Shown: positions 11,792-57,105 of the stretch, in pieces
How the letters are laid out: every line of letters begins with the position of its first letter
How positions within the stretch are numbered: the first letter of the stretch is position 1
DNA from: Candidatus Krumholzibacteriia bacterium
Lineage (GTDB): Bacteria > Krumholzibacteriota > Krumholzibacteriia > JAJRXK01
DNA length: 64,000 bases
Direction of reading: 5' to 3'
Assembly (NCBI GenBank): GCA_041484665.1
Contig: JBGPIA010000003.1
Location: 160,001 to 224,000 of the forward strand
The notes under the pieces: generated by a model
The model's input: the letters and a program-made list of their open reading frames with translations, nothing else
Databases searched by the model: none
What the model was told of the DNA's origin: nothing
Made by a program: the position numbers and the translations under genes

Positions 11792-12700
11792 CTATTCCGG
11801 GGTCCAGCGCGTGAACGCGTGGAGCTCGGCGCATCGGCCGCGGATCTGGTCGGCCGTGAGATCCGTGATACGGTCCACGCTGAAGTGCTCGGTCGTGAAG
11901 CTGGCCAGGACCGTCCCGAATCCCATGGCGCGGCGGAGCTCCTCGTCGTCGAAGCGTCCGGCCCGAGCCAGGTGCCCCAGGAAGCCGCCGGCGAAGGCAT
12001 CGCCCGCCCCTGTGGGATCGAAGACGCGCTCCAGCAGCACCGCCGGTACGGCGAAGCGCGACTCCGGCGTGAACAAGAGCGCGCCGTGCTCGCCCTTCTT
12101 CACCACCACCCAGCGCGGCCCCAGCGCCCGGATCTGCGCCACCGCCGCTGGCAGCAAGGCGTGCCCGGTGAGCTGGCGGGCCTCCTCCTCGTTCACGAAC
12201 ACGAGGTCCGCGCGCGCCAGCACCGCCTTGAGATCGTCCAATGCCGTCTCGATCCACAGATTCATCGTGTCGACCGCGACAAGCCTGGGCCGGGAGATCT
12301 GGTCGAACACCTCCAGCTGCAGGGCCGGGTGGATGTTGGCGAGGAACAGGATCGGCGCGTCGCGGTAGGCGGGTGGCAGCTTGGGATGGAAGTGCTCGAA
12401 GACGTTGAGCTGCGTGAACAGCGTATCGCGGTGGTTCATGTCTTTGTGGTAGCGGCCGCCCCAACGGAACGTCTTTCCGGGCGCCACCTCCAGACCCGCG
12501 CAATCGATGCCGCGCCGCCGGAACAGCCCGCGCGCGCTCTCGGGGAAATCCTCCCCCACCACCGCTACCAGCTTGATGCTGGTGAAATAGCTCGCAGCCA
12601 GCGCGGCGTAGCTGGCGCTGCCGCCCAGGCACTCCTCCGCCGAGCCATACGGCGTGCTGATGCTGTCCAGGGCGACGGAGCCGACGACCACGATGTCCAT
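11792..12700 (-). CDS. PfkB-family carbohydrate/nucleoside kinase
   Basis: 'VVGSVALD', 'LGGSASY', 'VNEEEA', 'KKGEHGA', 'DPTGAGDAFAGGF'. Confidence 0.93.
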   Translation of the reverse strand: MDIVVVGSVALDSISTPYGSAEECLGGSASYAALAASYFTSIKLVAVVGEDFPESARGLFRRRGIDCAGLEVAPGKTFRWGGRYHKDMNHRDTLFTQLNVFEHFHPKLPPAYRDAPILFLANIHPALQLEVFDQISRPRLVAVDTMNLWIETALDDLKAVLARADLVFVNEEEARQLTGHALLPAAVAQIRALGPRWVVVKKGEHGALLFTPESRFAVPAVLLERVFDPTGAGDAFAGGFLGHLARAGRFDDEELRRAMGFGTVLASFTTEHFSVDRITDLTADQIRGRCAELHAFTRWTPE

Positions 12701-25911: not shown

Positions 25912-28125
25912 ATGGAACTCCACGACCCATTCGCCCGCCACGTTGGCCAGACCATCTTCCTGCTCGTGGTCGCGCTCGGCCCCATCCCGCTGTGCTTGCG
26001 GATGCTTCACGCGTTCCGCCGTGACATCGAACCGGCGGACTTTGGCCACGCGCACATCACCCTGTTCCTGTGCTGGTATACGTTGCAGACGACCCTGGCG
26101 CTCCTCCTGGGACTGCTGCATCAGTTCCAGCTGCGGGCGGTGCTTCTTGCAGAAGGACTCCTGCTGGTGGCTGGAGTGGTTTCGCTCGTCATCCTGGGTC
26201 GCAGCGCGAAGCGCGCATCCCTGACTCCCCTGCTCTGGCCGAAGCAGCCTTCCATTCCCCAGGCCACGTTGCTCGTGCTGTTCTTCTTCGTCACGTGCCT
26301 TTCCCTCTGGGGCATCTTGTCGAAACCCACCCACAACTTCGACTCACTGGCCTACCATCTGCCGGTGATGGCGCAGTGGGTGCGCACCATGAAGCTCACT
26401 GTCCTCTCCGACCTACACCAGCTCGCTCGCTACCCGTTCAATATGGAGTTGGTCTCTGCCCTCGTGGCAATTCCCTTCGGCGACGACCTGCTCGTCGCGC
26501 TCCCCAATCTCCTTGCCTGGATCGCTCTCGGTCTGGCTGTAACCTTGCTCGGTCGACAGATGGGTGCTTCGAGCCTTCAGTCGCTGGCCGCCGCGCTGCT
26601 CGTTCTCACCACACGCAGCATGCTCTCACGCATCAATGCCGTTCAACCGGACATCACAGTTGCGGCGTTCTTCCTGGCTGGCTTGTACTTTGGTCTTCGC
26701 TTCGCCCAGAGAGAGTCGGAACTCGACCTTGCCATGCTCCTCTGTTCACTTGCGCAGCTCGCAGGCTTGAAGATGTCGTGCCTGCCCTACGTGGTCCTGC
26801 TCCTCGCAGCTGTGCTGGCGGCGCGCTGTCTCAACGCAAGAGAGGCTGGACGTCGCTGGCAAGACTCATTGCGGGTCAGCAGTCCGGCGCTGAGGACCGG
26901 CCTCCTGGTGCTCGCGGTTGCGTTTCTCCCCGCCATCTACTGGTATGGTCGTAATCTCCTGGATCTCGGAAACCCCTTGGGCTTCATCGAGCTCAAAGTG
27001 GGGCGCACTCAGATCTTCGCGGGCGACGTAACGCAGGAGTTCTGGAAAAGGACCGCGTTGGCCTCCGTGTTCGACGCGGCTCGCCTCCACGACTGGAGGA
27101 TCCTCACCGAAGTCATCTTGAAGTTCTTGGGGTTGCGCTTCGTGCTCATGCTCTTTCTGGGGCTGGCGGCCTTGGTGGGAACGGTGCGCGGATCCCTACG
27201 AGCCCCCAAGCGCTCCGCGATCGTTCTCTTCGCGCTGGTGATGCTCACTGCGATTGTCTATTGGCATTCCCCCTACAGCGGTGACAACGGAACGCACGAT
27301 TGGAAGCTCACTCCCTGGTTCGAGGTGGGCCTGCGCTACGGATATGTCTGCCTCGGAGTTCTTGGTGTGACTGCGGCCATGGGCCTGAGGGTGGTGGGCC
27401 TGCAGGATCCCTGGGTGGTGGGGCTATCAACCCTGAGTTGTCTACTTGGCGTGATGGTTGGCCTGAAGCCAGGAGCGCCGGCTTCGATCGCTGCGCTGGG
27501 TCTTGCGCTCGTCCTCGTACTTGCCCAGCGCAGGATCCGTCTGCCCGTGGCGCCGCGCGCGCTCATCAGCACAGGAGTCGCTCTTGCGTTCGTGATCTTC
27601 CTGGGTGTCTCGTGGCGTGCGAGGGCAGCTCGTGAGGTCGAGCGCAATCGCTTCTATGGACCGCTCTATTCCTTCATGGAAGCCCAGGTGGAGCCCACCG
27701 CGACCGTGGGGTACGTGAACATGGTGGCGATCTATCCTCTGGTGGGCAGGGCATGGACGCGCGATCTGGTTGCGGCAGAGCCTTCGACGGACAGCTACGA
27801 GGAGTGGGTCCGGTGCTTGAAGGCGAAGGGGATCAGTGTCGTCGTCGTGGGGCAGGGGCCGGCTGCGGTCGACGCCTTGGCCGTTGAGCGTGTGCAGCGG
27901 TGGCTGCTCGGCGAACCGCCTGAGTTCGAGCTGCTCCAGCGTACCCAGTACCAAGGCGAAGGTGTCTCCCTGTATCGGCTGAGGAGGCTTGACGGATCGG
28001 CGCAGGGTGTTCCCTCCCAGCAGCCTTGCGCCCAGCGCACTCGACCGGTTGCTTCGGGATGGGTCCGTGGAATCCCCACGGGGCAGCACGACGCCGAAGA
28101 TCGCGCTCCCAGTGTGAAGGTCTGA
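25912..28125 (+). CDS. Polytopic membrane protein, putative GT-C glycosyltransferase
   Basis: Many TM segments, loop motif 'NFDSLAYHLP', 'YPFNMEL', 'WYGRN...GNPL'. Lower GC and opposite strand to its neighbours. Confidence 0.75.
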   Translation: MELHDPFARHVGQTIFLLVVALGPIPLCLRMLHAFRRDIEPADFGHAHITLFLCWYTLQTTLALLLGLLHQFQLRAVLLAEGLLLVAGVVSLVILGRSAKRASLTPLLWPKQPSIPQATLLVLFFFVTCLSLWGILSKPTHNFDSLAYHLPVMAQWVRTMKLTVLSDLHQLARYPFNMELVSALVAIPFGDDLLVALPNLLAWIALGLAVTLLGRQMGASSLQSLAAALLVLTTRSMLSRINAVQPDITVAAFFLAGLYFGLRFAQRESELDLAMLLCSLAQLAGLKMSCLPYVVLLLAAVLAARCLNAREAGRRWQDSLRVSSPALRTGLLVLAVAFLPAIYWYGRNLLDLGNPLGFIELKVGRTQIFAGDVTQEFWKRTALASVFDAARLHDWRILTEVILKFLGLRFVLMLFLGLAALVGTVRGSLRAPKRSAIVLFALVMLTAIVYWHSPYSGDNGTHDWKLTPWFEVGLRYGYVCLGVLGVTAAMGLRVVGLQDPWVVGLSTLSCLLGVMVGLKPGAPASIAALGLALVLVLAQRRIRLPVAPRALISTGVALAFVIFLGVSWRARAAREVERNRFYGPLYSFMEAQVEPTATVGYVNMVAIYPLVGRAWTRDLVAAEPSTDSYEEWVRCLKAKGISVVVVGQGPAAVDALAVERVQRWLLGEPPEFELLQRTQYQGEGVSLYRLRRLDGSAQGVPSQQPCAQRTRPVASGWVRGIPTGQHDAEDRAPSVKV

Positions 28126-36595: not shown

Positions 36596-36961
36596 TCAGG
36601 AGGCGTGGGCGACGGCGGCCACCCGGGCATCCTCGACGGTGGGATAGGCCTCGAGGATGTTCTGGAACTCCAGCAGCTCGAAGACCTCGTAGACGTCGGG
36701 CACCATTCCCACCAGCTTCAAATCGCCGCCATTCTCGCGGATCTCGCGGATGACCGAGATGAAGATCCCCCAGCCCGCCGAGCTGATATAGGAGACCTTT
36801 CCAAGGTCCACGATGAGGTTGTAGCGGCCGTTCTGGATGAGCCGCTTCAGCTCCCGTTCGAGGTCCACGGAGGTGGTGGTGTCGATGTACCCGGAGACCT
36901 CGAGGGCATCCAGGTTCGCCTTCGGATCGATGGTGCGCGTGGAAACCGAGATACCTTCCAT
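36596..36961 (-). CDS. STAS-domain anti-sigma-factor antagonist (RsbV/SpoIIAA family)
   Basis: 'VSGYIDTTT', 'LIVDLGKVSYISSAGWG' (phospho-Ser motif), 'GGDLKL', 'VYEVFELL'. AAGGAG RBS. Confidence 0.93.
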   Translation of the reverse strand: MEGISVSTRTIDPKANLDALEVSGYIDTTTSVDLERELKRLIQNGRYNLIVDLGKVSYISSAGWGIFISVIREIRENGGDLKLVGMVPDVYEVFELLEFQNILEAYPTVEDARVAAVAHAS

Positions 36962-37089
36962 CGCGTGCCCAGCTCCTTTGCGGCCGGCCCCAGGGGGCCA
37001 ACTCGTTGCGATTCTTCGTGTTGCTCCTGCAGCCGCCCCCGCACCGCGTGCCGGCCTTCTGCGGGCGGTCACAGGCCAGGACAGGTCCG

Positions 37090-37106
37090 TGCAAGGTTCG
37101 GTCCAA
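37090..37106 (-). promoter_or_regulatory. Candidate sigma54 (-24/-12) promoter for the STAS gene
   Basis: Minus strand TTGGACCGAACCTTGCA (GG-N10-GC). Confidence 0.55.
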
Positions 37107-37110
37107 CGAG

Positions 37111-39696
37111 CTAGGGCAAGGAGGGCACGGCCGCGTCCGGCGCTGCGGGGCCTGCCGGCCCAACGTCGGGCAGGTCAACGTCCGACGCCGTTGCGCCTGG
37201 CGAGAGCGCGCCCAGCGCCGGCGCGTTGTGCGGCGGGGCGCCGCTGCCGCCGCCACCGGATGCGGTCCCCGGATCCGCGGGGTTGCCGCCGGAGGTCGCC
37301 CCGGCGCGGGGCGCCCACCCGCGTCGCCGCAGGTACGCCAGACGCAGCTCCTTGTTGTTGAGGCGCATGCGCACCAGCTCGTCGTAGACCACCCGATCGT
37401 CGACCGTGTGGCCGGTCTCCTCCAGGAGCCCGGCCAGACGCTTCGCGCCCAGGTCGGGATGGGCGCGGATGTGCGCCAGGAGCGCCCGGCGCTCCTCCAT
37501 GTTGAGCCGCCGCAGGGGCGTGGCGGCGGCGGGTACGGGTGCGAGCAGACCCTGCTCGCCCCCCTCGTCGCGCAGCTTGCGCCACCGGTAGTACGTGGAG
37601 GTCGAGACGCCGTAGCGGCGGCAGGCCTCCTCGACCGCGATCGCGTCACGCTCCACCAGGTCGAAGAGGCCGCGCCGGCGTTCCGCCTCCAGCTCGGCGG
37701 GACGCAGCTTCTCCTTGATCGCGACCACCGTGATGTCGTCGTGCTGGGGGATCTCACCGGTGAAGGCGGCCACGTCGCGCTTGAGCTCCTCGATGAACTC
37801 GCCGGCACCGCGACGGCCGTGCTGGCGCAGGCAGGCCACCATCCGATCGATGCCATACTGCTCGCGCTGTTGGTTCATCGCTTCGGTCACGCCGTCGGTG
37901 TAGACCAGCAGCATGTCGTCCTGCTGCAGCTGCACCCGCTCGACGTCGATGGTGCGCCCGAAGAGGCCGGGATCGGGCAGCGAGATCCCCACGGGGAAAC
38001 CCCGCGGATTGAGGAAGAAGACCTCGTCGGTCTCTGCGCGCAGGAGCAGCATCGGGTTGTGGCCGGCCGACGAGTAGCTGATCACCCGGGTGTGCGAGTC
38101 GAGGATCACGTAGAAGAGCGTGATGAACATCCCCTTGCGCATGTCGTCGGTCACGAAGGCGTTCATGCGCGTCATGACGTCGGAGGCCGAGTAGTTGCCG
38201 CGGGCCTCCATGCGCAGGGCGGTGCGGATCATGGTCATCACCAGCGACCCGGGCACCCCCTTGCCCGAGACATCGGCTACGACAACCCCGATCGTGTCGT
38301 CGTCCACCACGACGAAATCGTAGTAGTCGCCACCGACCTCCATGGCCGCCTTGTAGAAGGCAGCGATATCGTAGCCGCTGACCTCCGGATAGCGCTTGGG
38401 GAGCAGCGTCTCCTGGATCTCGCGAGCCACCTGCATCTCCTTCTGCAGGCGCTCCTTCTCGACGACGTGGCTCTGGGCCTGGCGGAACTTCGCGGTGATC
38501 TCGTTGAAGGCCCGGGCGATGGTCGAGATCTCCTCGGGACCCTCCTCCTGGATCTCCTCGTGCAGCATGCCGTCGCCGATGGCGAGCACGCCCTCGGTGA
38601 GCCGCTGGATCGGCCGTACGAAGAGGTTGACCATCAGCGAGATGAGCACCATCCCCAGCACCAGTACGCCGATCCCCAACAGCAGCGTGCGGCGCAGCGC
38701 CCGGCCGATCTCGGAGGTGACCTGGTCCTTCGCCACGCCCAGCACCACCGTACCGACCTCCACCGGCGAGGCGCCCTGCCCTTCCAGGCGTACAGACGCG
38801 CGCAGCTCCCAGATGGCGCGCCCGGTGCCGTCCCGCAACGCGAGCCACTCGCCGCCGCTTCCGCGCCACAGCCCAACGCCCTCGCTGGGGCGGTACGGCT
38901 CGAAGATTCTGTCGAGGCGGCTGTCGCACCAGACCGTTCCGTCGAGCTTGCGGACGACCCGGACGTACACCAGAGCGGGGTCGTGGCGCACCAGATCGGA
39001 CACGCTCTGGTTCAGCAGCGTGCGCTCGAGGCCGTATGGCTTCCCCTCCGCGAGCACGCTCACGGCGTCGCCGGCCAGCTGGCGGGCGGTGAGCTCGATG
39101 CGGCCGCGGGCATCGCGCAGCGTCACGCTGCGCTGATGGCTGTAGACGACGCCCAGCGCGCAGGCCGTGAGCGCGCACAGGCCCAGGCTGGCGCGCAGGA
39201 AGAACTTCATGCGCAGGCTGTGGGTCAGCCCGGTGGGCTCCACGCCCGGGATCAGCCGATCCACCCAGCGGCGGCGGTCCAAGCGCAGCAGGAGCTCGTT
39301 GGTGCCATTGCGGCTGGTGTACGCCACCGCGTCCATGATCTGGTTGATCAGGTAGACGCCCAGGCCGCCGCGTTTGCCGATCGCCACGTAATGGTTGAGG
39401 TCGGGCGTCTGCACGGCGTCGAACTCGAACGACGCTCCTGTGTCGCGGATGCGGATGTCCAGGTGGCCGTGCCCGTAGCGCACCAGCAGCTCGATGGTGC
39501 CGCCGCCGTCGTGGTAGGCGTGACGAACGATGTTAGTGCAGGCCTCGTCGACGGCCAGCTTGCAGTTGCTGATCTCGACGGCAGAGATGCCGGCGCTGCG
39601 TCCGAGGCGCTCGATGAAGTCGCGGACCTCGCGTAGGTGGATCTCGCTGGCCTCGACCTTGAGGGTGGCGGTGCGCGCCGTGCGCCGGATCATCAC
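37111..39696 (-). CDS. RsbW-type kinase - TM - periplasmic domain - TM - HAMP - SpoIIE/PP2C phosphatase - transposase-like double-HTH fusion
   Basis: N-box 'LAVDEACTNIVRHAY', 'IRDTG', 'GGLGVYLI'. Two TMs. HAMP 'PIQRL...EISTIARAFN'. PP2C motifs 'VGGDYYD', 'DVSGKG', 'SAGHNP', 'TDGVTE', 'DDIT'. C-terminal 'VEEACRRYGVSTSTYYRWRK'. Confidence 0.9.
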   Translation of the reverse strand: MMIRRTARTATLKVEASEIHLREVRDFIERLGRSAGISAVEISNCKLAVDEACTNIVRHAYHDGGGTIELLVRYGHGHLDIRIRDTGASFEFDAVQTPDLNHYVAIGKRGGLGVYLINQIMDAVAYTSRNGTNELLLRLDRRRWVDRLIPGVEPTGLTHSLRMKFFLRASLGLCALTACALGVVYSHQRSVTLRDARGRIELTARQLAGDAVSVLAEGKPYGLERTLLNQSVSDLVRHDPALVYVRVVRKLDGTVWCDSRLDRIFEPYRPSEGVGLWRGSGGEWLALRDGTGRAIWELRASVRLEGQGASPVEVGTVVLGVAKDQVTSEIGRALRRTLLLGIGVLVLGMVLISLMVNLFVRPIQRLTEGVLAIGDGMLHEEIQEEGPEEISTIARAFNEITAKFRQAQSHVVEKERLQKEMQVAREIQETLLPKRYPEVSGYDIAAFYKAAMEVGGDYYDFVVVDDDTIGVVVADVSGKGVPGSLVMTMIRTALRMEARGNYSASDVMTRMNAFVTDDMRKGMFITLFYVILDSHTRVISYSSAGHNPMLLLRAETDEVFFLNPRGFPVGISLPDPGLFGRTIDVERVQLQQDDMLLVYTDGVTEAMNQQREQYGIDRMVACLRQHGRRGAGEFIEELKRDVAAFTGEIPQHDDITVVAIKEKLRPAELEAERRRGLFDLVERDAIAVEEACRRYGVSTSTYYRWRKLRDEGGEQGLLAPVPAAATPLRRLNMEERRALLAHIRAHPDLGAKRLAGLLEETGHTVDDRVVYDELVRMRLNNKELRLAYLRRRGWAPRAGATSGGNPADPGTASGGGGSGAPPHNAPALGALSPGATASDVDLPDVGPAGPAAPDAAVPSLP

Positions 39697-41726
39697 TCCC
39701 TCCCGCCGCCGCCCTCTGCATCCGCTGCCGCGCTCTGCTTCTCGCCCAGATGCTCCATGCGCGTGCGCGCCTCACGGATGTTGCTCAGCGCTCCCGGATT
39801 GCCGGGGTCGATCTGCAGGATCTGCTCCCACTGCGCGATCGCCTCGCCGTAGAGCCCCGCGGTGAACTTGGAGAGCCCGGCGAGGTAGAGGCGCCGCACT
39901 TGCGCCTCGTGCTCGGGCGACAATGGCGCCGGACCTGCCAGCGCGCGGCGGGCGCGCTCCGCAAGCTCCCGGGCCTCGCGGTGCTCGGGAACCTGCGCGA
40001 GGATCTGCTGGGCAAGAGCCAGCGCCTGTTCCACCCGGCCGTCGGCGAAGGCCTGCAGCGCCTCGGTGTAGCGGTGCGCAAGCGTCAGCTGGGCCCCCGC
40101 TTGCGCCGCGCGCGTGCGGGCCCCTTGCAGATCGTCGCGCAGGCGCGCGATCTCCTGGTGCGCAGTGGAGTCTTGCGGCGCGAGCCGCAGCACGTCCGAC
40201 CACGCCTGCAGCGCCGCCAGCCAATCCCCCTGCTGCTGCGCCTGCCGCGCCGCGTCGGCCTGCTGCGCCGCCGCGGCTTCCAGCTTCACCGCCAGCTCGT
40301 CGCGGTAGCGGGCGAGCAGGGGGTGGTCGGCGGCGAGCTCCGCTAGCCGGTCGAATGCGCCACGCGCCCGCAGGGGATCGCCCCCGTCCAGTGCGGTACG
40401 CACCTGGTCGGCGGCCCCCGCGACGCGGGCAGCACGCTCGCGGAGATCCTGCGTCGAGACGGCCTCCTGCGCGCGGGCCGCGGCCAGCTCCTGCGCAACG
40501 GCGGCGACGTCCTGCGCGCTCGCGCGCAGGCCCGCCGCCCGCTGCAGCTCGCGCTCGGCGCCGGTCAGGTCAGAGGCCGCGAGCAGCCGATGCGCTTGCT
40601 GCAAGCTCGAGTCGGCCTGCGCCGCGAGCCAGGCCTGCACGGCCTGCTGCGTGGCCTGTTGCAGCGCGACGGCCCGTTGGCGCTCGGCGCGGTCGCGGCG
40701 CTCCGCGATCGTCTGCCCGACCCTCCAGGTGAGCGTGAAATAGTGGCTGGCCCCGAGCTCGCTGCCCGACTGGAAGGCGTAGTCCAGCGCATAGGCGCGC
40801 CAGCGACCGCCCGCGCCCACGCCCACGCGGCCGCCAGCCACACCCAGGCGCGCGCTCCACCCCGCGGGCAGCTCCGCCTCGGCGGCCAGACCGATGCGCG
40901 CGTCAGCATACTGGGCATGCTCGTAAGAGGCGGCCAGGCGCACGGACGGTCCTGGGCCGCTGCGCAGCTGCCAGCTCGCGGCGTAGCGCGCAGTGTGCGG
41001 CAGCGTGTCCTCGCGCTCGACCAGGCGGAACGAGGGAGCGATCACGTCCTGGAACGCGGCCGCCACCGAGAGCCGCGGCACGCGGGGCGGGTGGAAGCGC
41101 AGGCCGCAGTCGAGGCCGCCGCTGGTGGCGCTCTCCCCCACCTCCAGCCAGTGCACCTTGGCCGTCAGGCCCAGGTCCACGCGTCCGCCCAGCCACGGGA
41201 TCCGCACGCCGCTGCCGTACCCCAATAGGAGTTGCGTTTGCGCGAAGTCGATGCTACCCGTCGGGCGGCTGGCCGCATCGTAGGCGGGGATGCCGCTCAC
41301 GCCCACGCGCAGCAGCGCCACCCCGAAGCCGCCCGCACCCAGCGTCGGCACGACTACGCCCGCGTATTGCAGGGTCGTCCCATCGGGCCCTGCGGCCAGA
41401 CGGTTGTGGCTGAAGCTGAGCTGCGTGATGGGAGCGCGGCGCAGCAACGCCGGGTTCCAGAACGTTGCACTGGCGTCCTCCCCCAGCACGACCATGGAGG
41501 CGCCGAGGCTGATCCCACGTGCGGTGGGGCCGAAGCGGAACGGTCCCTCGGTGCCACCGCCATCGTCGGCGGCGGCGGGCCCCGCCGGGAGAGCCGCCAG
41601 AGCCGCCAACTCCAGGAGCACGACGCCGGCCAGCCAGGCGGCCGTGCGGCCAGCGCCCGCACCTCGCGCGTTCCGGTCACGCACGTCAAGCGCGCCGCCG
41701 CGCTGCGGGAGTAGCCGTGCGCTCAT
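39693..41726 (-). CDS. PorV/PorQ (FadL-like) outer-membrane beta-barrel fused to a coiled-coil/TPR region
   Basis: Signal peptide and PorV-type N-motif 'GPTARGISLG.S....EDASATFWNPALL'. Barrel end 'LDYAF...ELGASHYFTLTW'. C-terminal TPRs 'GLYGEAIAQWEQILQIDPGN'. Confidence 0.85.
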   Translation of the reverse strand: MSARLLPQRGGALDVRDRNARGAGAGRTAAWLAGVVLLELAALAALPAGPAAADDGGGTEGPFRFGPTARGISLGASMVVLGEDASATFWNPALLRRAPITQLSFSHNRLAAGPDGTTLQYAGVVVPTLGAGGFGVALLRVGVSGIPAYDAASRPTGSIDFAQTQLLLGYGSGVRIPWLGGRVDLGLTAKVHWLEVGESATSGGLDCGLRFHPPRVPRLSVAAAFQDVIAPSFRLVEREDTLPHTARYAASWQLRSGPGPSVRLAASYEHAQYADARIGLAAEAELPAGWSARLGVAGGRVGVGAGGRWRAYALDYAFQSGSELGASHYFTLTWRVGQTIAERRDRAERQRAVALQQATQQAVQAWLAAQADSSLQQAHRLLAASDLTGAERELQRAAGLRASAQDVAAVAQELAAARAQEAVSTQDLRERAARVAGAADQVRTALDGGDPLRARGAFDRLAELAADHPLLARYRDELAVKLEAAAAQQADAARQAQQQGDWLAALQAWSDVLRLAPQDSTAHQEIARLRDDLQGARTRAAQAGAQLTLAHRYTEALQAFADGRVEQALALAQQILAQVPEHREARELAERARRALAGPAPLSPEHEAQVRRLYLAGLSKFTAGLYGEAIAQWEQILQIDPGNPGALSNIREARTRMEHLGEKQSAAADAEGGGGRE

Positions 41727-44700
41727 CGCGTCACCGCGATCCGGAAGAACGACTGCTGCCCGCCGGCACGGATGCGACAGACGTAGAGCCCGCTGCGCAC
41801 GTCCTGGCCGCGTCCGTTGAGCCCGTCCCAGTGCACGTCACCGTCGTGCAGGCCCGCCGCTGCCTGCGGCTCACCGGCAGCGAAGCTCCACTGGCGTACC
41901 GGATTGCCGAGCAGGTCGAAGATGGAGATCTCCACGGAACCGCCTGCCGCGAGCGAGTACGCGATGACCGCCGCCTCACGGCTGGGCACGAAGGGATTCG
42001 GGTAGCTGTGCGCGGAGGCTGCGAGCGCCGCCGGCGAGCGCACCGAGAGCGCTGATGTCACATCGGTGCGCGGCGCGCCATGCAGATCGGTGAGCTGCAC
42101 CGCGACGGCGGTGCCGTCCGGGGCCTGGGCGGCAATGCCGGCGGCGCTCTGCACGCGCAGGGCGAACGGGACGAAGCTGCCGCCCTCCGCCGCGCGCGCC
42201 GCCAGGTGGAAGCCCCGCGCTTGCCCCGGAGCGAGGGTGGCCGTCAGAGCGATGGACGCGGGGTTGCCCGCCACCGCGCTGCTCCAGCGCGCGCCGGAGA
42301 CGTCATCGGTCACCGCGAGCTCCGCGAGCGTGCCCGCCGGATCTGGCAGCAGGCTGCCGCCGGCGTCCACCATCCACACCGACAGGGACGTCCACTGCAC
42401 GGCCGCGGAGCTGCCGTTGGAGAAGCCCAGCTCCATGCGGTCGCGCAGCGCGCTCCCCGCCACGATCGGCCCCTCGCCGACGGCGTCACCCGCCGCCAAT
42501 CGCACGAGGCTGGAGACCGTCGCCAGGGGCAGACGCACGGCGCGCGCCGCGTCGCCTGCGGGCAGCCCGCTGTTTGCATCCAGCGGCACGGTCGCAAGTT
42601 GCAGCACGAGCTGGTCCACGCCTGCGCCCGCGACCGCCGGCGCTTGCAGCGTCCACAGCGCCGTGTCGGCTGCAGTGGCGAGCGTCACGATCGCCACCGA
42701 CCCGCCGGTGAAGGGGTACTGTGGCGGCGGCGTGAGGCGCAGCGCGGACGGCCCGGCAAGGGTGGCGCTCCCAGCGGCCTGGATCCAGCCCTTCACCGTG
42801 ACCTGGGCGCCGGGATACACCTGGCCAAAATCGCGCGCGCTGGCCGGAGCCGCGAGCGCGCCCGCAGCCTCGGCGCGGGCGGCCTGCTCGACGGCGACGG
42901 CCAGCGTCGCGCAGGTCTCGGCCACGGCCTGACCGCTCTGCACATCGGTGGCGCTGGCGACCAGGCGGATCTGCAGCTGCGACGCCGGTGTGGCCGGCGC
43001 CTGCACGCGCCAGGAGGCGGTGTCCACGCCGGCCGCGAGCGCGCGAAGCGGGTCGCCTCCGGGCAAGGAGAGCGCAGGCGGCAGCAGCAGACGCAGCGCG
43101 CGCTGCTGCAGGTTGGGCGGAGCGCTCGCGCTTCCGCGCACCGTGAAGCTCTGCCCCGCGCTCAACCGCAGGTCGGCGGCTCCCGGCGGCGCGACCACGG
43201 CCAGCGCGCATGCGTCGATGCCTTGGCCGCCCTGCACGTCCAGCTGAACGCTGGCGCTGGTCTGGGTCGTGAGCGCGACCCGCGCGGGATCGTTGCGGTC
43301 GAGGCGGTCGCCGGCCAGCAAGGCGACGAGCGTGGTGAGGCTGGCCTGCGTCGGGGCGCGCAGCTGTAGCACGACCGCGGACTGCACTGGCGAGAGCAAC
43401 AGCGGCGCGGCCAGGGGCGGCTCCAGCGTGAACGGCGAGAGCGCCGGAAAGGTCACCTCCACCGGCAGCCAGTCGCCTTGGCCGTCCAACGGCGGCACAT
43501 GATCGAGCGCCACGCGCAGCGCCACGAGCTGACCGGGAGTGACCGCAGCGTGCAACGGATCGGCGCTGCCCGGCAGTGTCACGCTGAACGCGAGGCGAAC
43601 GGGACGCTGGACCTCCAGCGCCTGCACGTTGTCCAAGGGCGCCAGCTCCGGCACGGGCAGCCCGGTGTTGGCCGAGCGCGCGCGCGTGACGCGCGCGACC
43701 AACGTCTCCGCGCCCAGCGCGCTGGTCACCGCGACCTGGAAGTCCAGGGAGTCGACGGCCCCCGCGGCCAGGCGCGAGAGCACGGCCGGCGCCGCGCTGC
43801 TGGGCGGCGACATCGTGCCGGCCACGACCACTGTCAGCGAATCGACGGCCTCCTGGCCGCTGTTGCCCACCGCCACGCGCGCTCGGATGATCTGGCCCGC
43901 ATCGACCTGCGGTTGGGGCGCGCGCGGGTGCAGCGTGCGCGTGGACAGGATGCGCAGGCCCGCCGGCTGCTCCACCGTCAACGGGGTCTCGGCCTGCGCG
44001 GCCAGCCCTGCCCCATCGAGCACGTCCTGCGCGGCCGCGCTCACCCGCGCCAGTCCTCCGCCGGGCTGCGACCCAGCGCGCAGCACGCTGTAGCGCAGCA
44101 CCCCGCGTTGCTGGCCGTCCAGCAGCAGGCCGCCGCCGGCCAGCAGACCACCCGGCGCCGTCACCAGGTAGTCGGCCTGGGGCTGCCCCGCCAGAAGGAA
44201 TGTCACGTCCTGCGGCTGCGGCGCGGCAATCCGCAGCGGCGCGTCGCCAGCGTTGTGCACGTCCAGATCGATACTGAAGGCCGAGGTCTGCCCCGCGGTG
44301 ATGCGGTCGATGGGCGAGAGCGCTCCGTCGCGGACGATGACCTGCTCGGCGATGAGTGCCGCCGGAGCCACCGTCAAGAGCAGCAGTGAATCGCGCTCGG
44401 CGGAGGGCTCCAGCGCCGCCGGGCGGTTCCCGTAGCGGTCCACCGCCGCCACCAGCTGCACGCGCAGCCATTCCGCGGCGCCCGGCTGCGGTGCCGCCGG
44501 AATCGCCAGCGGTACGGTCGCCGTGTCGGTCAACTCCGGCCAGATCAGCGCGCTGTCGACGCGCCCCAGGGCGGAGCGCACCCGCAGCTGCACCGCGTCC
44601 GCGACCCCATCCCCGCGGTTCGCCAGACGGATGACGAGGGTGGCCGTCCCCCCCGCATCGACGCGGATCCGTCCGGGCTCCGGCGCGATCTGCGCGCCCA

Positions 44701-47700
44701 CGGCCCGGCCGGTCAGGCCGTTCAGCGCGACCTGCGGCGGCTGCGGCAGCGGGACGGCCGCCACCAGCGAGTCGGCGAGCAGCCGGCCGCTGTTGACCTC
44801 CTCGACCTGCACGCGCGCGGAGAGCGTCAGCGTGCCTGCCGTGGGCAATGGCCCCTGCGCCACGAACATGAGGCTGTCGGCGCCACCGGCCGGCAACAGC
44901 AGCGTCGCCGATCCGGCCCATGTCGCAGGCGTCAGCGTGGCGGCCAGCGGCCACGCGCCCAAGCCGGCGCGCGCGGAAAGCGCCGTGGCCGGTGGGAGCG
45001 GGCGCAGGCGTACCGTGCTGCCGCCACCATTGCGCACCGCCAGGCGGACCGAGAACGGGGCGACGCGGCCGGCGCTGAGCGTATCGGGCACGGCGCGCAG
45101 GGTCAGCGGCGCGAGCGCCGCGGGCGCCTGCACGAGCACCAGTCCGGATCCTCCGTCGCCCGAGCCGTCCTGCATCCGCTGCTGCGAGTTGAGGTCGACT
45201 GCCTCGACCTGCGGCAGCAGCACCAGCGGACCGGCAGTGGGTCCGGTCGTCAGCAGATCGACGCGCAGCGTGTCGGTCTCGCCGGCGTCCAGCCGTAGAT
45301 CGCCGCCGTCCAGCGCCGCGCGTGCCTGCGCCACGAAGCCCCCCGCCGCCGCACCCCCCTGCAGCAGGTCGAGACGCGTGCGTGTCGGGTCGGGGTCGAC
45401 GGCCAGCGGCGCCTGGCCATTGTTGCGCAGCGCGACCTTGACCAACCAGGGGCGCGCCTGTTGCGCGGTCACGGTGGCCTGGCTGGGAGCGGACGCCACG
45501 ATCTGCAGCGCAGCGGGCTGCTGCGCCAGCAGCGCCCCGGTCGCCAGTGGCAACGACAGTGCGACCACCGTCATGTTCTCGGTGCCGCGCAGCTCGACCA
45601 CCGCCGGCGGCGCGCCCAGCGTCAGGTCCAGGGGCAGATCCAGCGGCGCGAAGCGCAGGACCGTCTCGCCTGGCGGCAGCGCGCGCGGCCCCAGCGGATC
45701 GAGCGCCGCGCTCAGACGCGCGGCGGCCGGCTCGCCCAGGCGCAGCGTGGTCGCCAGGGGGTCCAGGTCCACGGCCGCCTCGCCGGAGTTCACCACGCGC
45801 ACCGTGAAACGCACGCTCGCTCCCAGGCTCACCGGGTTGGGCGAGAGCGCCGGCAGCGCCAGCGCGAGCGCAGCCGGCGCCTCCACACGTATGGCCGCGG
45901 GCCAGCGCAGCGTGTCGGCAAAGGCGCGGCCCAGCTCGTCTCCGCCGAGAATCAACACCAGGTCGAAGAGTCCAGGTGGGGCTGCCGCGTCGACCGTCGC
46001 GGCGGCGAACACGAGCTCGGTGGTGCCGCCGGCCGCCAACGCCATCGGTTGCGCCAGGGCCGCGGCCGCCGCGGCCGCCGCGCCGGTCTGCACGGTCGCG
46101 CGCGTGCGCGACGCATCGAGCGATACCGGAACGCCTCCGTCGTTGCGCACCTGGACGCGCAGCACCACCGTCGCGCCGCGGGAGACGCGCGCGGGGGTGA
46201 CGCCGCCCGCGACCGCGGCCAGCCGTGCGGCGGTGGACACCTGCAGCGGCAGCGCAGTCAGGCCGTCTTGGGCCAGGAAGTCGGCCGTGCCGCTGCGGCC
46301 GGCGACCTGGGCCCGGAAGCCGTAGAGGCCGGGCAGCGTGGCGGCGCCGACGCGCAGCCGCGTGCGGTGATCGATCTGCCCGCCGGGCGGAAGCAGCGGC
46401 AGCGCATCCTGTCCGACCGGCAGGAAGTCCCCCTGCGGCTGCGCGGCAATCGTCACGCTGGTGAGCTGCACCGGCGCGCCACCCACGTTGCGCACGCGCG
46501 CCACGACCTCCACCGTGTCCCCCACGACAGCGGCCACTGGCGCTACGCTCACCGCGGCCACCGCCAGCCCGCTGACGGCCAGCAGCCCGTCGGGTAGCAG
46601 CACCAGCCCCATGATGGGCTGGCCGTGCCCGTCCAGCCCGCCCAGGCGTACCACCGGACGATGCGCGCCGGGAGCGAAGGCGGAGTCCAGGGGCGCCGCG
46701 GCGAACCCCAGCAGCGCGGTGCCACCGCCGGGCACCAGCACGCCGCCCGCCAGCGCCGCGACGTAGGTCGCGCCCGCGCCCTCATCGAGCTCGAAGGTCG
46801 TGCCAGCGGCCGACAGCAGCGCGTCGGCCTGCCCGGCATTGCGCAGGCGCAGCGTGAAGGACACGGTCTCGCCCGGGGCAACCACCATGGGCGCGAGGGC
46901 GCCGTCGAAGACCAGCGCCGCGCGCTCCTCGAACGCCGCCTGGGCGCTGCCGGCGGCTGCACCCGCCACGAACGTCACCGTGGCCACCCCCGCCGAGATC
47001 GGCGCCACCAGGCGCGCCTCGACCTGGCCAGCGGCATCGGTGGCGCGCTGCAGGCCCGGCGTGAGCGGATCGAGGTCGTCGAAGAGCAGCGCTCCCAGCG
47101 TGCTGGCGATCGTCACCGGCGTGCCGGGGGCGACCAGGTTGCCCCAGGTGTCGGTCACCGGCCCGGCCGTGAGCCGCGTCGTCGCCAGGCCGTCGGCGGT
47201 ATTCACGGGCGGGTCGACACCCGGTACGGGGATCATGCCCGCGGGCGGACCGGCCAGCACCGCCCTCGGCCCTAGCGCCCCGCCGACCGCTGGCGCGGGA
47301 TCCCAGGACGCCCCAATCGTGAGCGTGCCCGCTCGCGATGCGGTGACGTCCACGCTGGCCGTACCGAAGGAAAGCGTAACCGGGTTGGGCGCGGTGGCGC
47401 TGCCTTGTGGGGAGAATGTCATGGTCACCGTGCCGGAGGCAGACACGAGATTGCCGGCGGCATCCAGCAGCGCGAGCGTCACGGCGCGGGGGACACCTGC
47501 CGTCAGCGCGCCCGGCGCCGTGGTCAGCTCGAGGGTGGCCGGCGCTCCCGCCGTGCCCGTGACGTGCCAGCGCAAGCTTTCCAGCGCGGCGGGTGCGCGG
47601 TCGAGGATGCTGGCCCGCACCTCGTGCACGCCGGCGTGCGCGGAGAGCGCGAGGGTGGCCTGCGCCTCGCCCTGGGCATCGGTACGCGCGATCCCGTCGT

Positions 47701-50668
47701 CGGGTGGCGGCGTCGCATCGCTCAGTGACGCGCCCGGCGGCGCAGAACGCAGCTCCAGGCGCACGGGCTCGCCGGCGACTGGATTGCCGTAGCGGTCCAG
47801 CACGCGCGCAAGCAGCGCCGACTGCGCGCCCGCCGCGATGACCACGGACGTGTCGGCCACGGCGACGATGCGGTACGCCAAGGCCGCCGTCACGGCGATG
47901 GCCGCGCTCGTGTCGGTGACAGCCGGCGCGGCGAGCAGCGCGGCGGTCACGCGCGCGCTGCCCGCGGCGGTGTCGGCTAGCGTGGCGCTCAGCAACCCGG
48001 AGGAGAGCGCGGCGCTCGAGGGAACGATGGACGCGCCCGCCCCCAGTGCGCCCAGCACGACCACGTCGGTGGCATCGTCGACGCGGTTGCCCGCAACGTC
48101 GACGGCCTCCACCTGCACCGGCACGGTCTGTCCGGCGGTGAGCGTGTTCGACGACGGCGTGAGCCGCAAGGCGGTGATGGCTCCGCTGCGCGTGAAGACC
48201 ACGAGCGTCCGCGTCTCGCGCGCGACGGGAACGCCATCGAGGATGGACAGGCGCAGGCGCGCCATTCCAACCTGGGAGTTCGTGCGCAGACGCGCGCTGC
48301 TGCGCCCGTCGAGCCCCGTGGCGCCGGGAGGGGACTCGAGCGTACCACCCTCGACCAGCACCGCCGTCACGGCGATCCCAGCAACGGCGTTGCCCCGCGC
48401 GTCGCGGGCCTCGACCTCGGCTGCTACCACGTCTCCCGCCACGATGCCGCGGAGCGTGTCGGGCCCGACGCTGACGAGCTCGAAGGCAGCGCCGGGGAGC
48501 ACCACCGTGGGCGGGCCCACGTATCCGCGACCCGCGGCACTGACGCGCAGCCGCAGCGTGAGGGCGCGGGTGACGCTCTGCAAGTTGGTCGTGAACGAGC
48601 CCGCGCCGAGCTGCCCGCTGGCGACGGCCAGTGTGGCGGGCGCGACGGCGGTCGTGTCGCTGGCGAGGACGGCGTCGAGGTGGAACGCTGTGCTGGCGTC
48701 CGCCGCGAAGTTCCCGAAGGCATCGAACCCCACCACCGTCATCGGGAACGGCGCGCCTGCCACGACCGTATCGGGCGCGCTGACGGTAAAGCTCGCCACC
48801 TGGCGGCCGGCGATCACCGTGACGCTCACGCTGTCACCAGCCAGCACGGCTGCTGGGTCCGTCACCGTCAGGGTGTGCGTGCCTGCCGGTCCGCCACGCC
48901 ACCAGCGCTGGGCGCTTCCACCCACGGAGACGGCCAGCGGGCTGACGAAGGGACCGGCGATGGACGCGCAGAGGCCGATGCCGCTGCTGGGGGCGGCGGC
49001 GACGCTCAGCGTGGCGAGGGCGTTGGTGTCGACGTTGCCATGTGCGTCGACCAGCGTGATGGCGAGTTGCCCGAGCTCCTCCCCCGCGCGCACGGGTCCG
49101 CTGGGCGGCTGCAGGCGCACCGCCACGGCTTGGCCCGGCCGGCTGGTCAACACGAGATCGCCGACCGCGCTGGCGGGCAGCCCGGGCGCGACCGCGTCGA
49201 GCCGGTCGGTGCGCCCGGCCTGCGTCGCCGCCCGATACAGGACGTGCACGCGTCCGTCGCCGCCCGTGCTGCCCCGCTGCTGCGCCACGCCGAGCGAGTC
49301 GGTCTCACCGGCGGAGGCCAGCGCGCCGTCGAGCGGATCGGTCACCAGCACGGTGACCTCCACTCCGGCCACGCCGTTGCCGAAGGCGTCGGTGGCACGC
49401 GCGGCCACCGTGGTCACCGAGCCCGCCTCGACGTCCACCGCGCCGTTGGGCAGCAGTGCGAGCGCCGCGAACGGCCCCGGACTCGCCGTCGCGTGGAAGA
49501 CGACCGTGTCGCCGAAGTCGGCGACGGCGAGCAACGTCTGGCTGCCGGCCACGGTCGCCAGCGTCCAGCGCGAGCAGCGCGCCAGCCCACCTTGGTCGGT
49601 GAGCGCGCTGGTCTGGTCCCCCGGAGTGCCCAGATCGGTGTCGGCCGATCCGTCGCCCATGGGCTGGAACGTGACGGTGCGCGCGGCTACGGAATTGCCA
49701 AAGGCGTCCAGCGCACGGACGGCAGGCGCCTGCGACACGGTCGCCGCCACAAGGGCCGTCTGGCCGTCGCCTGCCGCGGCCAGCAGCGACTGGGGAGCGG
49801 CAGCCTGCACGTCAAGCGTGGCGCCGCCACTGAGAGGGCCGTTCTGCGCGGTGATGTGCAGCGTCTCAGCGCGCGTGTCGCTGAGCGTGAGCTGCACCTG
49901 GCCCGAGTCGCCGGGAGCGAACGTGTACGCCGCCGCGCCGGGTGAGGTCGGCACGAGCGCACCCGCGCCCGCGGCGGACCAGGAAATATTGGTGCCGTCA
50001 CCGGCAGTGTCGGTCGCCAGCGCGGCGGTTCCGGCGTACGGCGCGACGCGATTGCCGAACGCGTCCACGGCGGCGAGCACGAGGACGTGCGGCGTCCCGG
50101 CGACGGTGCAGCCGCCTTCGGGCTGGAGGTCGAAGAGCGCCGCGGGCCCGGCCACCAGCGTGAAGGGGTCGCAGAGGGCCGGGCCCTCGAGCGTGGTGCC
50201 GGTGGCGTCGCGGGACTCCAGAGTGACCGTCGCGCTCCCCGCGCGGGTCGCATTGCCCACGCCCAGCAGCTCAATGGTCAACGCACCGGCGACGAGGGGA
50301 GCGCCGGTGATGGCCAGGACCGCCACGCTGTCCTGGACCGCCAGGATCACGCTCGCGGCGCCAAGGCCGCTGGTGGGGCCCAGCGCGGCCGACGCCAGCG
50401 TGAAGCCCGCTGGATAGCCGATGCGCAGCGAGCCACCGGCCTCGATGTCCACCTCCGTCGCGAGCATCACGACGTGGCTCGTGGTCGAGCCGACCACGTC
50501 GCTGGCGGGCGCAACGGCGCCCCCCGACAGCGCGTGCGCTGGCGAGGCCTGCCCCATCGCGAGCAGAGCGATGATGAGCAGTGCCGCCGGTCGTGCGACG
50601 CGCCGGCCGGCCCGCGCGCGCGATGCGCGCCGGAGGGATCGCTGGAGGGAACGCTGCATGCTCGCCAT
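41723..50668 (-). CDS. Giant (~2980 aa) secreted Ig-repeat surface protein (invasin/Big_1-like and CARDB-like repeats) with FlgD-Ig/T9SS-like C-terminal domain
   Basis: Signal peptide ending '...ASPAHA'. Repeated 'DAFGN/DAxGN' Big_1-like modules ('GDGQTA.V'). Second half has repeats 'P..V..G....F.V.V.N.G'. C-terminal 'SYPNPF...IFDLLG..VR...WDG.N..G..V.SGLY'. Confidence 0.9.
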   Translation of the reverse strand: MASMQRSLQRSLRRASRARAGRRVARPAALLIIALLAMGQASPAHALSGGAVAPASDVVGSTTSHVVMLATEVDIEAGGSLRIGYPAGFTLASAALGPTSGLGAASVILAVQDSVAVLAITGAPLVAGALTIELLGVGNATRAGSATVTLESRDATGTTLEGPALCDPFTLVAGPAALFDLQPEGGCTVAGTPHVLVLAAVDAFGNRVAPYAGTAALATDTAGDGTNISWSAAGAGALVPTSPGAAAYTFAPGDSGQVQLTLSDTRAETLHITAQNGPLSGGATLDVQAAAPQSLLAAAGDGQTALVAATVSQAPAVRALDAFGNSVAARTVTFQPMGDGSADTDLGTPGDQTSALTDQGGLARCSRWTLATVAGSQTLLAVADFGDTVVFHATASPGPFAALALLPNGAVDVEAGSVTTVAARATDAFGNGVAGVEVTVLVTDPLDGALASAGETDSLGVAQQRGSTGGDGRVHVLYRAATQAGRTDRLDAVAPGLPASAVGDLVLTSRPGQAVAVRLQPPSGPVRAGEELGQLAITLVDAHGNVDTNALATLSVAAAPSSGIGLCASIAGPFVSPLAVSVGGSAQRWWRGGPAGTHTLTVTDPAAVLAGDSVSVTVIAGRQVASFTVSAPDTVVAGAPFPMTVVGFDAFGNFAADASTAFHLDAVLASDTTAVAPATLAVASGQLGAGSFTTNLQSVTRALTLRLRVSAAGRGYVGPPTVVLPGAAFELVSVGPDTLRGIVAGDVVAAEVEARDARGNAVAGIAVTAVLVEGGTLESPPGATGLDGRSSARLRTNSQVGMARLRLSILDGVPVARETRTLVVFTRSGAITALRLTPSSNTLTAGQTVPVQVEAVDVAGNRVDDATDVVVLGALGAGASIVPSSAALSSGLLSATLADTAAGSARVTAALLAAPAVTDTSAAIAVTAALAYRIVAVADTSVVIAAGAQSALLARVLDRYGNPVAGEPVRLELRSAPPGASLSDATPPPDDGIARTDAQGEAQATLALSAHAGVHEVRASILDRAPAALESLRWHVTGTAGAPATLELTTAPGALTAGVPRAVTLALLDAAGNLVSASGTVTMTFSPQGSATAPNPVTLSFGTASVDVTASRAGTLTIGASWDPAPAVGGALGPRAVLAGPPAGMIPVPGVDPPVNTADGLATTRLTAGPVTDTWGNLVAPGTPVTIASTLGALLFDDLDPLTPGLQRATDAAGQVEARLVAPISAGVATVTFVAGAAAGSAQAAFEERAALVFDGALAPMVVAPGETVSFTLRLRNAGQADALLSAAGTTFELDEGAGATYVAALAGGVLVPGGGTALLGFAAAPLDSAFAPGAHRPVVRLGGLDGHGQPIMGLVLLPDGLLAVSGLAVAAVSVAPVAAVVGDTVEVVARVRNVGGAPVQLTSVTIAAQPQGDFLPVGQDALPLLPPGGQIDHRTRLRVGAATLPGLYGFRAQVAGRSGTADFLAQDGLTALPLQVSTAARLAAVAGGVTPARVSRGATVVLRVQVRNDGGVPVSLDASRTRATVQTGAAAAAAAALAQPMALAAGGTTELVFAAATVDAAAPPGLFDLVLILGGDELGRAFADTLRWPAAIRVEAPAALALALPALSPNPVSLGASVRFTVRVVNSGEAAVDLDPLATTLRLGEPAAARLSAALDPLGPRALPPGETVLRFAPLDLPLDLTLGAPPAVVELRGTENMTVVALSLPLATGALLAQQPAALQIVASAPSQATVTAQQARPWLVKVALRNNGQAPLAVDPDPTRTRLDLLQGGAAAGGFVAQARAALDGGDLRLDAGETDTLRVDLLTTGPTAGPLVLLPQVEAVDLNSQQRMQDGSGDGGSGLVLVQAPAALAPLTLRAVPDTLSAGRVAPFSVRLAVRNGGGSTVRLRPLPPATALSARAGLGAWPLAATLTPATWAGSATLLLPAGGADSLMFVAQGPLPTAGTLTLSARVQVEEVNSGRLLADSLVAAVPLPQPPQVALNGLTGRAVGAQIAPEPGRIRVDAGGTATLVIRLANRGDGVADAVQLRVRSALGRVDSALIWPELTDTATVPLAIPAAPQPGAAEWLRVQLVAAVDRYGNRPAALEPSAERDSLLLLTVAPAALIAEQVIVRDGALSPIDRITAGQTSAFSIDLDVHNAGDAPLRIAAPQPQDVTFLLAGQPQADYLVTAPGGLLAGGGLLLDGQQRGVLRYSVLRAGSQPGGGLARVSAAAQDVLDGAGLAAQAETPLTVEQPAGLRILSTRTLHPRAPQPQVDAGQIIRARVAVGNSGQEAVDSLTVVVAGTMSPPSSAAPAVLSRLAAGAVDSLDFQVAVTSALGAETLVARVTRARSANTGLPVPELAPLDNVQALEVQRPVRLAFSVTLPGSADPLHAAVTPGQLVALRVALDHVPPLDGQGDWLPVEVTFPALSPFTLEPPLAAPLLLSPVQSAVVLQLRAPTQASLTTLVALLAGDRLDRNDPARVALTTQTSASVQLDVQGGQGIDACALAVVAPPGAADLRLSAGQSFTVRGSASAPPNLQQRALRLLLPPALSLPGGDPLRALAAGVDTASWRVQAPATPASQLQIRLVASATDVQSGQAVAETCATLAVAVEQAARAEAAGALAAPASARDFGQVYPGAQVTVKGWIQAAGSATLAGPSALRLTPPPQYPFTGGSVAIVTLATAADTALWTLQAPAVAGAGVDQLVLQLATVPLDANSGLPAGDAARAVRLPLATVSSLVRLAAGDAVGEGPIVAGSALRDRMELGFSNGSSAAVQWTSLSVWMVDAGGSLLPDPAGTLAELAVTDDVSGARWSSAVAGNPASIALTATLAPGQARGFHLAARAAEGGSFVPFALRVQSAAGIAAQAPDGTAVAVQLTDLHGAPRTDVTSALSVRSPAALAASAHSYPNPFVPSREAAVIAYSLAAGGSVEISIFDLLGNPVRQWSFAAGEPQAAAGLHDGDVHWDGLNGRGQDVRSGLYVCRIRAGGQQSFFRIAVTR

Positions 50669-50785: not shown

Positions 50786-50800
50786 GCAACTTCCGTGCCT
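50786..50800 (-). promoter_or_regulatory. sigma54 (-24/-12) promoter of the giant-protein operon
   Basis: Minus strand AGGCACGGAAGTTGC, a near-perfect match to TGGCACG-N4-TTGC, about 120 nt upstream of the ATG. Confidence 0.75.
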
Positions 50801-57032: not shown

Positions 57033-57105
57033 GCCGCCCCCCTGTTCGACCTTGTGCCCATTGCCGTCCAGTGCCCCTGCCGCGCAGTCCGCCACGCCCC
57101 CCGCC

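Follow-up and report, generated by a model that had tools for sequence, protein, structure and literature searches.

A transposase-type double helix-turn-helix fused to a membrane-bound serine kinase/phosphatase in Krumholzibacteriota and other uncultured bacteria

The window considered here is a stretch of 64,000 nucleotides from a Candidatus Krumholzibacteriia bacterium (assembly GCA_041484665.1, contig JBGPIA010000003.1, positions 160,001 to 224,000), and the gene of interest lies on its reverse strand (37111-39696, -) and encodes a protein of 861 amino acids (aa). The domain order is kinase, transmembrane (TM) helix, putative periplasmic domain, TM helix, HAMP, PP2C phosphatase, bipartite helix-turn-helix (HTH) and low-complexity tail, the last covering 69 aa. 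The N-terminal domain (39283-39654, -; aa 15-138) is a GHKL serine kinase of the RsbW/SpoIIAB type (PF13581, HATPase_c_2, E 3e-26), in which the N-box DEACTN, the D-x-G of G1 and the GGLG of G2 are intact, and the key residues are retained in 105-106 of 106 full-length homologues. Hydropathy predicts two TM helices, near residues 165-185 (39142-39204, -) and 336-360 (38617-38691, -); the variable segment between them carries PF17203 in many homologues and is presumably a periplasmic sensor. The HAMP domain (38497-38634, -; PF00672, aa 355-400) and the PP2C/SpoIIE phosphatase domain (37714-38304, -; PF07228, E 3e-49, aa 465-661) follow. The GGDYYD, DVSGKG, TDG and DD motifs of the phosphatase are intact, and its metal-binding aspartates are present in 106/106 homologues. 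Because two membrane helices are predicted, the kinase, HAMP, PP2C and HTH should all be cytoplasmic. The Pfam scan gave no Response_reg match, so the protein lacks a receiver domain and has the TM-periplasmic-HAMP input instead. With this set of domains, it is predicted to phosphorylate and dephosphorylate the STAS protein encoded next to it.

The original prediction placed a transposase-derived double HTH in frame with the phosphatase, and the peptide in question does form the end of the 861-aa open reading frame (ORF). The bipartite HTH spans 37321-37680 (-), or 120 residues. HTH1 (37549-37680, -; aa 673-716) has the recognition helix S-x-x-T-Y-Y-R with a net charge of +3, and is joined through a linker that is flexible in the AlphaFold model (37504-37548, -; aa 717-731) to HTH2 (37363-37503, -; aa 732-778), which retains P-x-x-G-A-K-R and has its recognition helix remodelled to V-Y-D-E-L. 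The last helix of the module (37321-37362, -), with the pattern L-N-x-x-x-x-R, aligns with the helix behind HTH2 in one IS481 subgroup. Pfam HTH_23 (residues 674-718, 27.2 bits, cut-off 24.6) and HTH_28 (688-718, 26.2 bits, cut-off 25) pass their thresholds, and HTH_32 (701-771, 29.6 bits, cut-off 33.7) stays below. The AlphaFold model of the module (predicted local distance difference test, pLDDT, 82) shows two three-helix domains, a loose linker and the final helix, and together with the Pfam and transposase-model matches it bears out the expected similarity to the HTH fold. In a Foldseek search with this model nothing reached E<=0.001, and the weak matches at the top of the list included the Mu, TnsB and Tc3 transposases and POU domains. 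In VIA-align the best score was ArgR (Z 6.3, root-mean-square deviation (rmsd) 2.3, 58 residues aligned), with lower scores for TnsB (Z 5.5, rmsd 12.8 over 122 residues) and Tc3 (Z 5.3, rmsd 12.4 over 98 residues), so that the structural likeness appears to be at the generic HTH level only. A sequence search of solved structures returned no informative relative (its top rows were protein A repeats), and a single-sequence fold of the HAMP-PP2C-HTH region reached a pLDDT of only 42 and was left unused.

The module is a genuine part of the gene. Contigs without differing letters cross the PP2C-HTH junction in three of four runs (X2, X3 and X5, from three studies); in the X4 run the contig breaks at the junction. 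The HTH and the PP2C domain have the same G+C content at third codon positions (GC3), 0.93, as the prediction of a codon style matching the host gene would have it. The genome contains one copy of the HTH module and no IS481 match. The absence of a DDE domain and of terminal repeats also held: no rve/DDE Pfam match was found, positions 112-284 of the IS481 model are unmatched, and the only inverted repeats in 36800-38200 are short, imperfect, GC-rich pairs, none of which flanks the module, both flanks being host coding sequence.

As to origin, the module alone matches positions 1-111 of 284 in the NCBIfam model of IS481 transposases (NF033577, E 5e-17), compared with E values of 4e-9 for IS630 and 6e-9 for IS3, so that on these scores IS481 is the closest transposase family. 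The module of a relative matches 43 plasmid records, and among the 30 listed 27 are annotated as IS481 transposase, at 26-32% identity over 86-98% of the query. With the IS481 N-terminus the module shares HTH1, linker, HTH2 and the next helix, which the alignment includes in the likeness. By contrast, the fusion lacks a DDE domain and any element ends that could be found, occurs as a single copy at a fixed locus, and has other residues in place of the arginine of S-R in HTH1, the positively charged linker and the S-P-S-G-V-R helix. The multiple copies and variable position of an insertion sequence (IS) were not seen, with one strong match per genome and fixed synteny. A quick tree of 96 modules over 135 columns (41 of 78 PP2C-fused rows, 28 of 98 copies fused to glycosyltransferases (GTs) and 27 transposases) places 41/41 PP2C-fused modules in one clade (SH-like approximate likelihood ratio test (SH-aLRT) 99). 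Since this tree is unrooted and comes from a quick search only, we can only infer that the transfer ran from transposase to host. The module is likely the N-terminal double HTH of an IS481-type transposase, captured once, long ago, and the domestication proposed earlier agrees with this and with the purifying selection described below. It is quite improbable that an old cellular HTH pair merely shares an ancestor with IS481 transposases. Such descent would fit the unrooted tree, in which the transposase and GT groups are weakly supported (69 and 79) and the PP2C clade is not nested in any sampled IS subgroup, and it would fit the lack of a transposase among the best 150 profile matches; however, the IS481 model is matched from its first position onwards through HTH1, HTH2 and the next helix, with a linker of corresponding length, and wherever the module was found outside transposases it is fused to unrelated domains. 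HTH1 (37549-37680, -) also weakly matches the CtrA inhibitor SciP (NF051866, E 2e-4) and DUF1153 (E 1e-3), a hint that SciP may be of similar origin.

The fusion is widespread. The junction region was found in 198 proteins and in 270 stretches of a genome collection, 80 of which were fetched; the stretch records are labelled mostly Krumholzibacteriota, and also Zixibacteria, Eisenbacteria, Latescibacterota and others. The five closest among the fetched loci are L026-L030 (55-57%). With a strong match defined as E<1e-20, 64 of 155 genomes of the window's own phylum have one each, distributed by family as 28/28, 15/16, 9/9, 4/4, 1/1, 5/9, 1/5, 0/71 and 0/11; samples of four other phyla gave 13/61, 16/61, 16/18 and 3/6, again with one strong match per genome. 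The orthologous kinase end occurs in 63 genomes of the own-phylum sample and the module in 63/63, of which 58 have both in the same open frame, four have them split over contigs and one shows frame breaks; no orthologue without the tail was found among these 63. In G151 the module seemed to be split, but the cause is a gap in the scaffold.

Selection was assessed as the ratio of nonsynonymous to synonymous substitutions (dN/dS) in the window and 76 of the 80 loci, where 332 of 2926 pairs fell within 0.05<dS<1 and yielded 19 non-overlapping pairs. dN/dS was below 1 in 19/19 of these, with medians of 0.13 for the module, 0.10 for HTH1, 0.14 for HTH2 and 0.06 for PP2C; the highest value, 0.62, comes from the pair that includes the window, in which saturation probably makes dS too low (GC3 0.93). 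HTH and PP2C distances are correlated (Spearman 0.87), a value reached in 0/500 permutations. Judged by these comparisons, the fusion is single-copy, syntenic, old and selected in uncultured bacteria of no fewer than five phyla, and the check asked of the orthologues, that they keep the HTH at dN/dS<1, came out in its favour. In one orthologue (locus L019, genome G021) the linker is shortened, HTH2 eroded, the final helix absent and the STAS copies divergent, and in this one lineage the module is apparently in decay. The idea that the module is a functionless remnant of a recent IS or a product of mis-assembly, for which the decayed HTH2 of G021 and the high ratio of the window pair, with its probably underestimated dS, might be cited, has next to no likelihood left: it was rejected on the contigs from three studies that cross the junction, the 63/63 co-occurrence and the 19/19 pairs, and the spread over five phyla and the lack of an IS481 copy in the genome also speak against it.

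The gene belongs to a block of fixed order, consisting of a giant Ig-repeat protein, a tetratricopeptide repeat (TPR) protein, the fusion, a stand-alone STAS protein, a 796-aa ORF that Pfam assigns to no clear family, and a lamin-tail protein. The giant gene (41723-50668, -; Big_1 and CARDB repeats) is the first, and the 677-aa protein with C-terminal TPRs (39693-41726, -) overlaps the start of the fusion gene. In the 80 loci, many of which are short, the partners were matched 58 times for the Ig-repeat protein, 68 for TPR, 55 for the stand-alone STAS, 42 for the 796-aa ORF and 36 for the lamin-tail protein. The STAS protein (36596-36964, -), of the anti-anti-sigma type, contains the serine motif YISSAGWG (PF01740, E 2e-19) and, together with its synteny, this makes it the likely substrate of the fusion enzyme. 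Orthologues of the giant Ig-repeat protein range from ~1450 to 5400 codons; its conserved C-terminal end is similar to that of the gene at 54567-57095, which has a FlgD-like match, and this common end is possibly a shared secretion signal.

Two conserved elements in the block are read as promoters, both of which we take to be of the sigma54 type by comparison with the general consensus. At the head of the block lies a -24/-12 element, GGCA-N6-TTGC (50786-50799, -), present before the giant gene in 15/16 upstream regions as against 2/315 coding control windows, after five of 21 regions were dropped where the gene start was gapped or broken. The other, TTGGAC-N5-TTGC (37090-37106, -), has the GG-N10-GC spacing and precedes the STAS gene in 42/68 loci. 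At many loci the first half of the element coincides with the final codons of an upstream TPR gene; it is also present where that TPR gene is not (the window, L026-L030, L058 and L083). A "GGC" extension of this element was rejected as coding sequence at the end of the same TPR gene. The genome encodes rpoN and 27 sigma54 activators. Sites resembling those of integration host factor (IHF), scored against the general consensus, occur in seven of 13 promoter regions, compared with a mean of 1.7 and a maximum of 5 in shuffles.

At the level of residues, 77 diverse representatives were compared with seven IS481-like transposases and, separately, 120 close homologues including the query were aligned. 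In HTH1, S698, T701, Y703 and R704 are invariant in 120/120 close homologues, and among the 77 representatives S/T698 is found in 70, K/R704 in 70 and K/R706 in 75; the recognition helix has a mean charge of +3.0 vs. +2.4 in the transposases. HTH2 retains P747, G750, K/R753, R776 and R785, and its recognition helix reads Y-D/E-E-L instead of the V-R-S-I-W or V-Y-R of the transposases. Base-contacting and backbone-contacting residues are assigned here from what is generally known of HTH domains. The simplest reading of these patterns is that HTH1 would still contact DNA, with changed or low specificity, and that HTH2 has been reshaped; some form of DNA binding by the module is rather probable.

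The mechanism that we tentatively favour, giving it a little less than an even chance, is that of a SypE-like membrane kinase/phosphatase held on DNA by HTH1, which would give the STAS switch a transcriptional read-out. A periplasmic signal passing through HAMP would decide between phosphorylation and dephosphorylation of the STAS serine, in the manner of SypE/SypA. HTH1, probably dimerized through the HAMP/PP2C stalk, would bind DNA and thereby hold the enzyme at a chromosomal site, while HTH2 would no longer read bases and would serve as a backbone-contact or docking surface instead. The most likely target would be its own sigma54-driven surface-protein operon. Because a bare HTH is not known to activate sigma54, the role would be that of a repressor or co-factor. 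Counted in favour of this mechanism is an HTH2 copy, basic or canonical in sequence, on the STAS partners of three other lineages.

A number of observations weigh against it. The arginine of the S-R pair, directly after S698 in HTH1, is invariant in 7/7 transposases and 98/98 GT-fused copies and is now T, P or S. The linker has a mean net charge of +0.1 in the family vs. +4.3 in transposases, HTH2 has D/E at 772 in 59/77 and E at 773 in 65/77 representatives, and the charge of the whole module spans -8 to +19. A distant clade shifts to T-Y-A-Y-Y-K in HTH1 and has acidic linkers. HTH1 is also the part that matches SciP, an HTH protein that acts through protein contact, and the window's own STAS lacks HTH2. 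An operator search for the HTH in 13 promoter regions was negative apart from the sigma54 box and the IHF-like sites, with the best dyad in 5/13 as against 3-6 in shuffles, in a search of low power whose target may lie elsewhere. The earlier idea of a ToxR/CadC-like DNA output is therefore upheld in part: the HTH is indeed predicted to be cytoplasmic, behind two membrane helices, but a sequence-specific output is not borne out: no operator was found around the operon promoter, the arginine of HTH1 is absent, the linker has lost its charge and the recognition helix of HTH2 is acidic.

The module might instead have lost DNA binding and become a protein-docking or dimerization unit, for example to find its own STAS among a dozen paralogues or to recruit an output protein. 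This is an unlikely alternative, although one with evidence on its side: the recognition helix of HTH2 is acidic yet invariant (Y771, E773 and R776 in 120/120 close homologues), three STAS domains are fused directly behind the module in 91/106 full-length homologues, and the acidic linkers of the distant clade and the SciP similarity point the same way. The STAS proteins themselves are relevant here, since they end in one or two basic or canonical HTH2 copies in Eisenbacteria- and Zixibacteria-labelled loci and in G159, and the Zixibacteria-labelled loci pair a strongly basic STAS HTH2 with an acidic enzyme HTH2. However, the recognition helix of HTH1 is basic and conserved and HTH1 has the lowest dN/dS of the module, the STAS-borne HTH2 of one relative has a canonical S-x-S-T-V-Y-R-R-L helix, and the window STAS has no HTH2 even though that of the enzyme is intact. 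STAS genes with a C-terminal HTH2 were found at L032, L036, L046, L049, L063, L076, L094, L100, L105 and L118 (2277-3449, reverse strand); the copies are very basic in Zixibacteria-labelled loci, and G159 has two.

A ParA-like gene lies directly downstream of the fusion in 49/64 loci, often with a TPR gene, and the window lacks both. In the loci L031-L105, a C-terminal peptide of the type W/F-x-x-Y-G/A-x-x-L is found together with an adjacent ParA in 44 cases, with neither in 15, ParA only in five and peptide only in none; the pattern was chosen after viewing the sequences, kin are not independent, and three of the 15 "neither" loci are frame-broken records. The peptide is a candidate ParA-binding element. 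This arrangement would fit a further alternative, in which non-specific DNA binding tethers the kinase/phosphatase to the nucleoid for positioning, with the help of the downstream ATPase. The possible backbone-contact residues S698, K/R704, K/R706, K752/R753, R776 and R785 are retained and the likely base-reading positions vary, and the negative operator search is in keeping with such a tether. On the other side, lineages without ParA and peptide retain the HTH, among them the window and the five relatives nearest to it, the top ParA match in the window genome is only 33% identical and lies on another contig, and the peptide pattern is subject to its post hoc choice, the kinship of the loci and the broken frames. 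Nucleoid tethering is rather unlikely, and anchoring through HTH1 with a transcriptional read-out stays the preferred account. In L105, a 98-codon ORF directly after the ParA gene (11603-11896) may resemble ribbon-helix-helix partition partners.

Comparable systems are known. The syp locus, reportedly sigma54-dependent, differs in gene content, with polysaccharide genes in place of the giant Ig-repeat protein of the fusion operon. In Vibrio fischeri, SypE is a single polypeptide with a serine kinase at its N-terminus and a PP2C phosphatase at its C-terminus, and acts on the STAS serine of SypA (PMC10120452; PMC4517449). SypE and the fusion thus share kinase and PP2C on one chain and a STAS partner; however, SypE has a central receiver domain, whereas the fusion has two TM helices, a periplasmic domain, HAMP and the C-terminal IS481-type double HTH. 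HsbR/HsbA of Pseudomonas aeruginosa and CrsR/CrsA of Shewanella oneidensis also combine PP2C and a GHKL kinase with a STAS partner, and their sigma target is RpoS; their order is receiver, phosphatase, kinase, and the accessible part of that account describes no HTH for HsbR or CrsR (PMC6482189). Since it has no receiver domain, the fusion is none of these proteins, nor an orthologue of SypE, although it would appear to work like them.

The likeness to ToxR/CadC and to hybrid transmembrane transcription regulators is one of topology only, in that a cytoplasmic HTH is carried by a membrane-anchored sensor. ToxR/CadC-like regulators are defined by an N-terminal OmpR-type winged HTH, whereas the HTH of the fusion is C-terminal, of the IS481 type and behind two enzyme domains, and no Trans_reg_C match was found. 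Transposase DNA-binding domains that became host regulators are well known in eukaryotes. A literature search, in which subscription literature was thinly covered, found no paper on a transposase HTH fused to a bacterial Ser/Thr signalling enzyme. The term "SpoIIE" occurs 0 times in the main text and nine supplementary files, as available, of a census of transmembrane regulators (PMC10269533). For several STAS switches, SypA among them, no output is known, and an HTH on the enzyme, and sometimes on the substrate, offers a candidate output that is directly testable with a fragment of 130 residues; the hosts are uncultured, and DNA binding is predicted only.

The original prediction also held that the HTH might explain a missing sigma factor, and this argument proved weak. 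In the window genome (93.65% complete) the best score against the SigB/F/G model TIGR02980 is 128.7 bits vs. a cut-off of 234, and 0/155 genomes of the phylum pass, whether they carry the fusion or not; lack of SigB/F/G therefore does not go with the HTH. There are 36 sigma70 region-2 matches in the genome, which encodes five non-RpoD multi-domain sigma70 factors and ECF factors, and in addition to the block it holds three more strong RsbW-like kinases and 11 more STAS matches, but only the one HTH module. Since the target of HsbR and CrsR is RpoS, which is encoded away from them and is not of the SigB type, a missing SigB does not mean that a sigma target is missing; and as SypE/SypA operate with no sigma factor linked to them and SypA, in the available text, is no classical anti-sigma antagonist (PMC10120452), a sigma target may still be encoded elsewhere in the genome.

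In a second fusion family, membrane GT2 glycosyltransferases as long as 2950 aa begin with two IS481-type modules in tandem (P0160, P0169, P0172, P0188, P0201, P0216 and others). Among 147 new matches, 49 were such two-copy proteins, and 13 of the 14 scanned contain GT2, the 14th being a 333-aa fragment. The GT-fused modules look more transposase-like than the PP2C fusions, because they retain the S-R arginine (98/98 copies) and a G/S-x-H-G-V helix in HTH2. A broader and more doubtful proposal is a partner switch without an anti-sigma target, in which the enzyme and, in several phyla, the STAS protein carry IS481 HTHs and would form a phosphorylation-controlled DNA-binding complex that gates the sigma54 promoters of the giant surface-protein operon, and in which the module would have been recruited a second time, doubled, onto membrane glycosyltransferases. 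If true, IS481 N-termini would be a recurrent source of membrane-to-DNA tethers in bacteria.

Two other genes of the window deserve mention. The gene at 5930-7639 (-) resembles a sigma54 activator with a Fis-type HTH and scores 114 bits vs. 204-246 for the other 26 of the genome, and is possibly degenerate. The gene at 25912-28125 (+) lies on the plus strand among minus-strand genes, shows a weak match to the PMT_2 glycosyltransferases and has a GC3 of 0.76 vs. ~0.9 in its neighbours, which is possibly the mark of an acquired gene.

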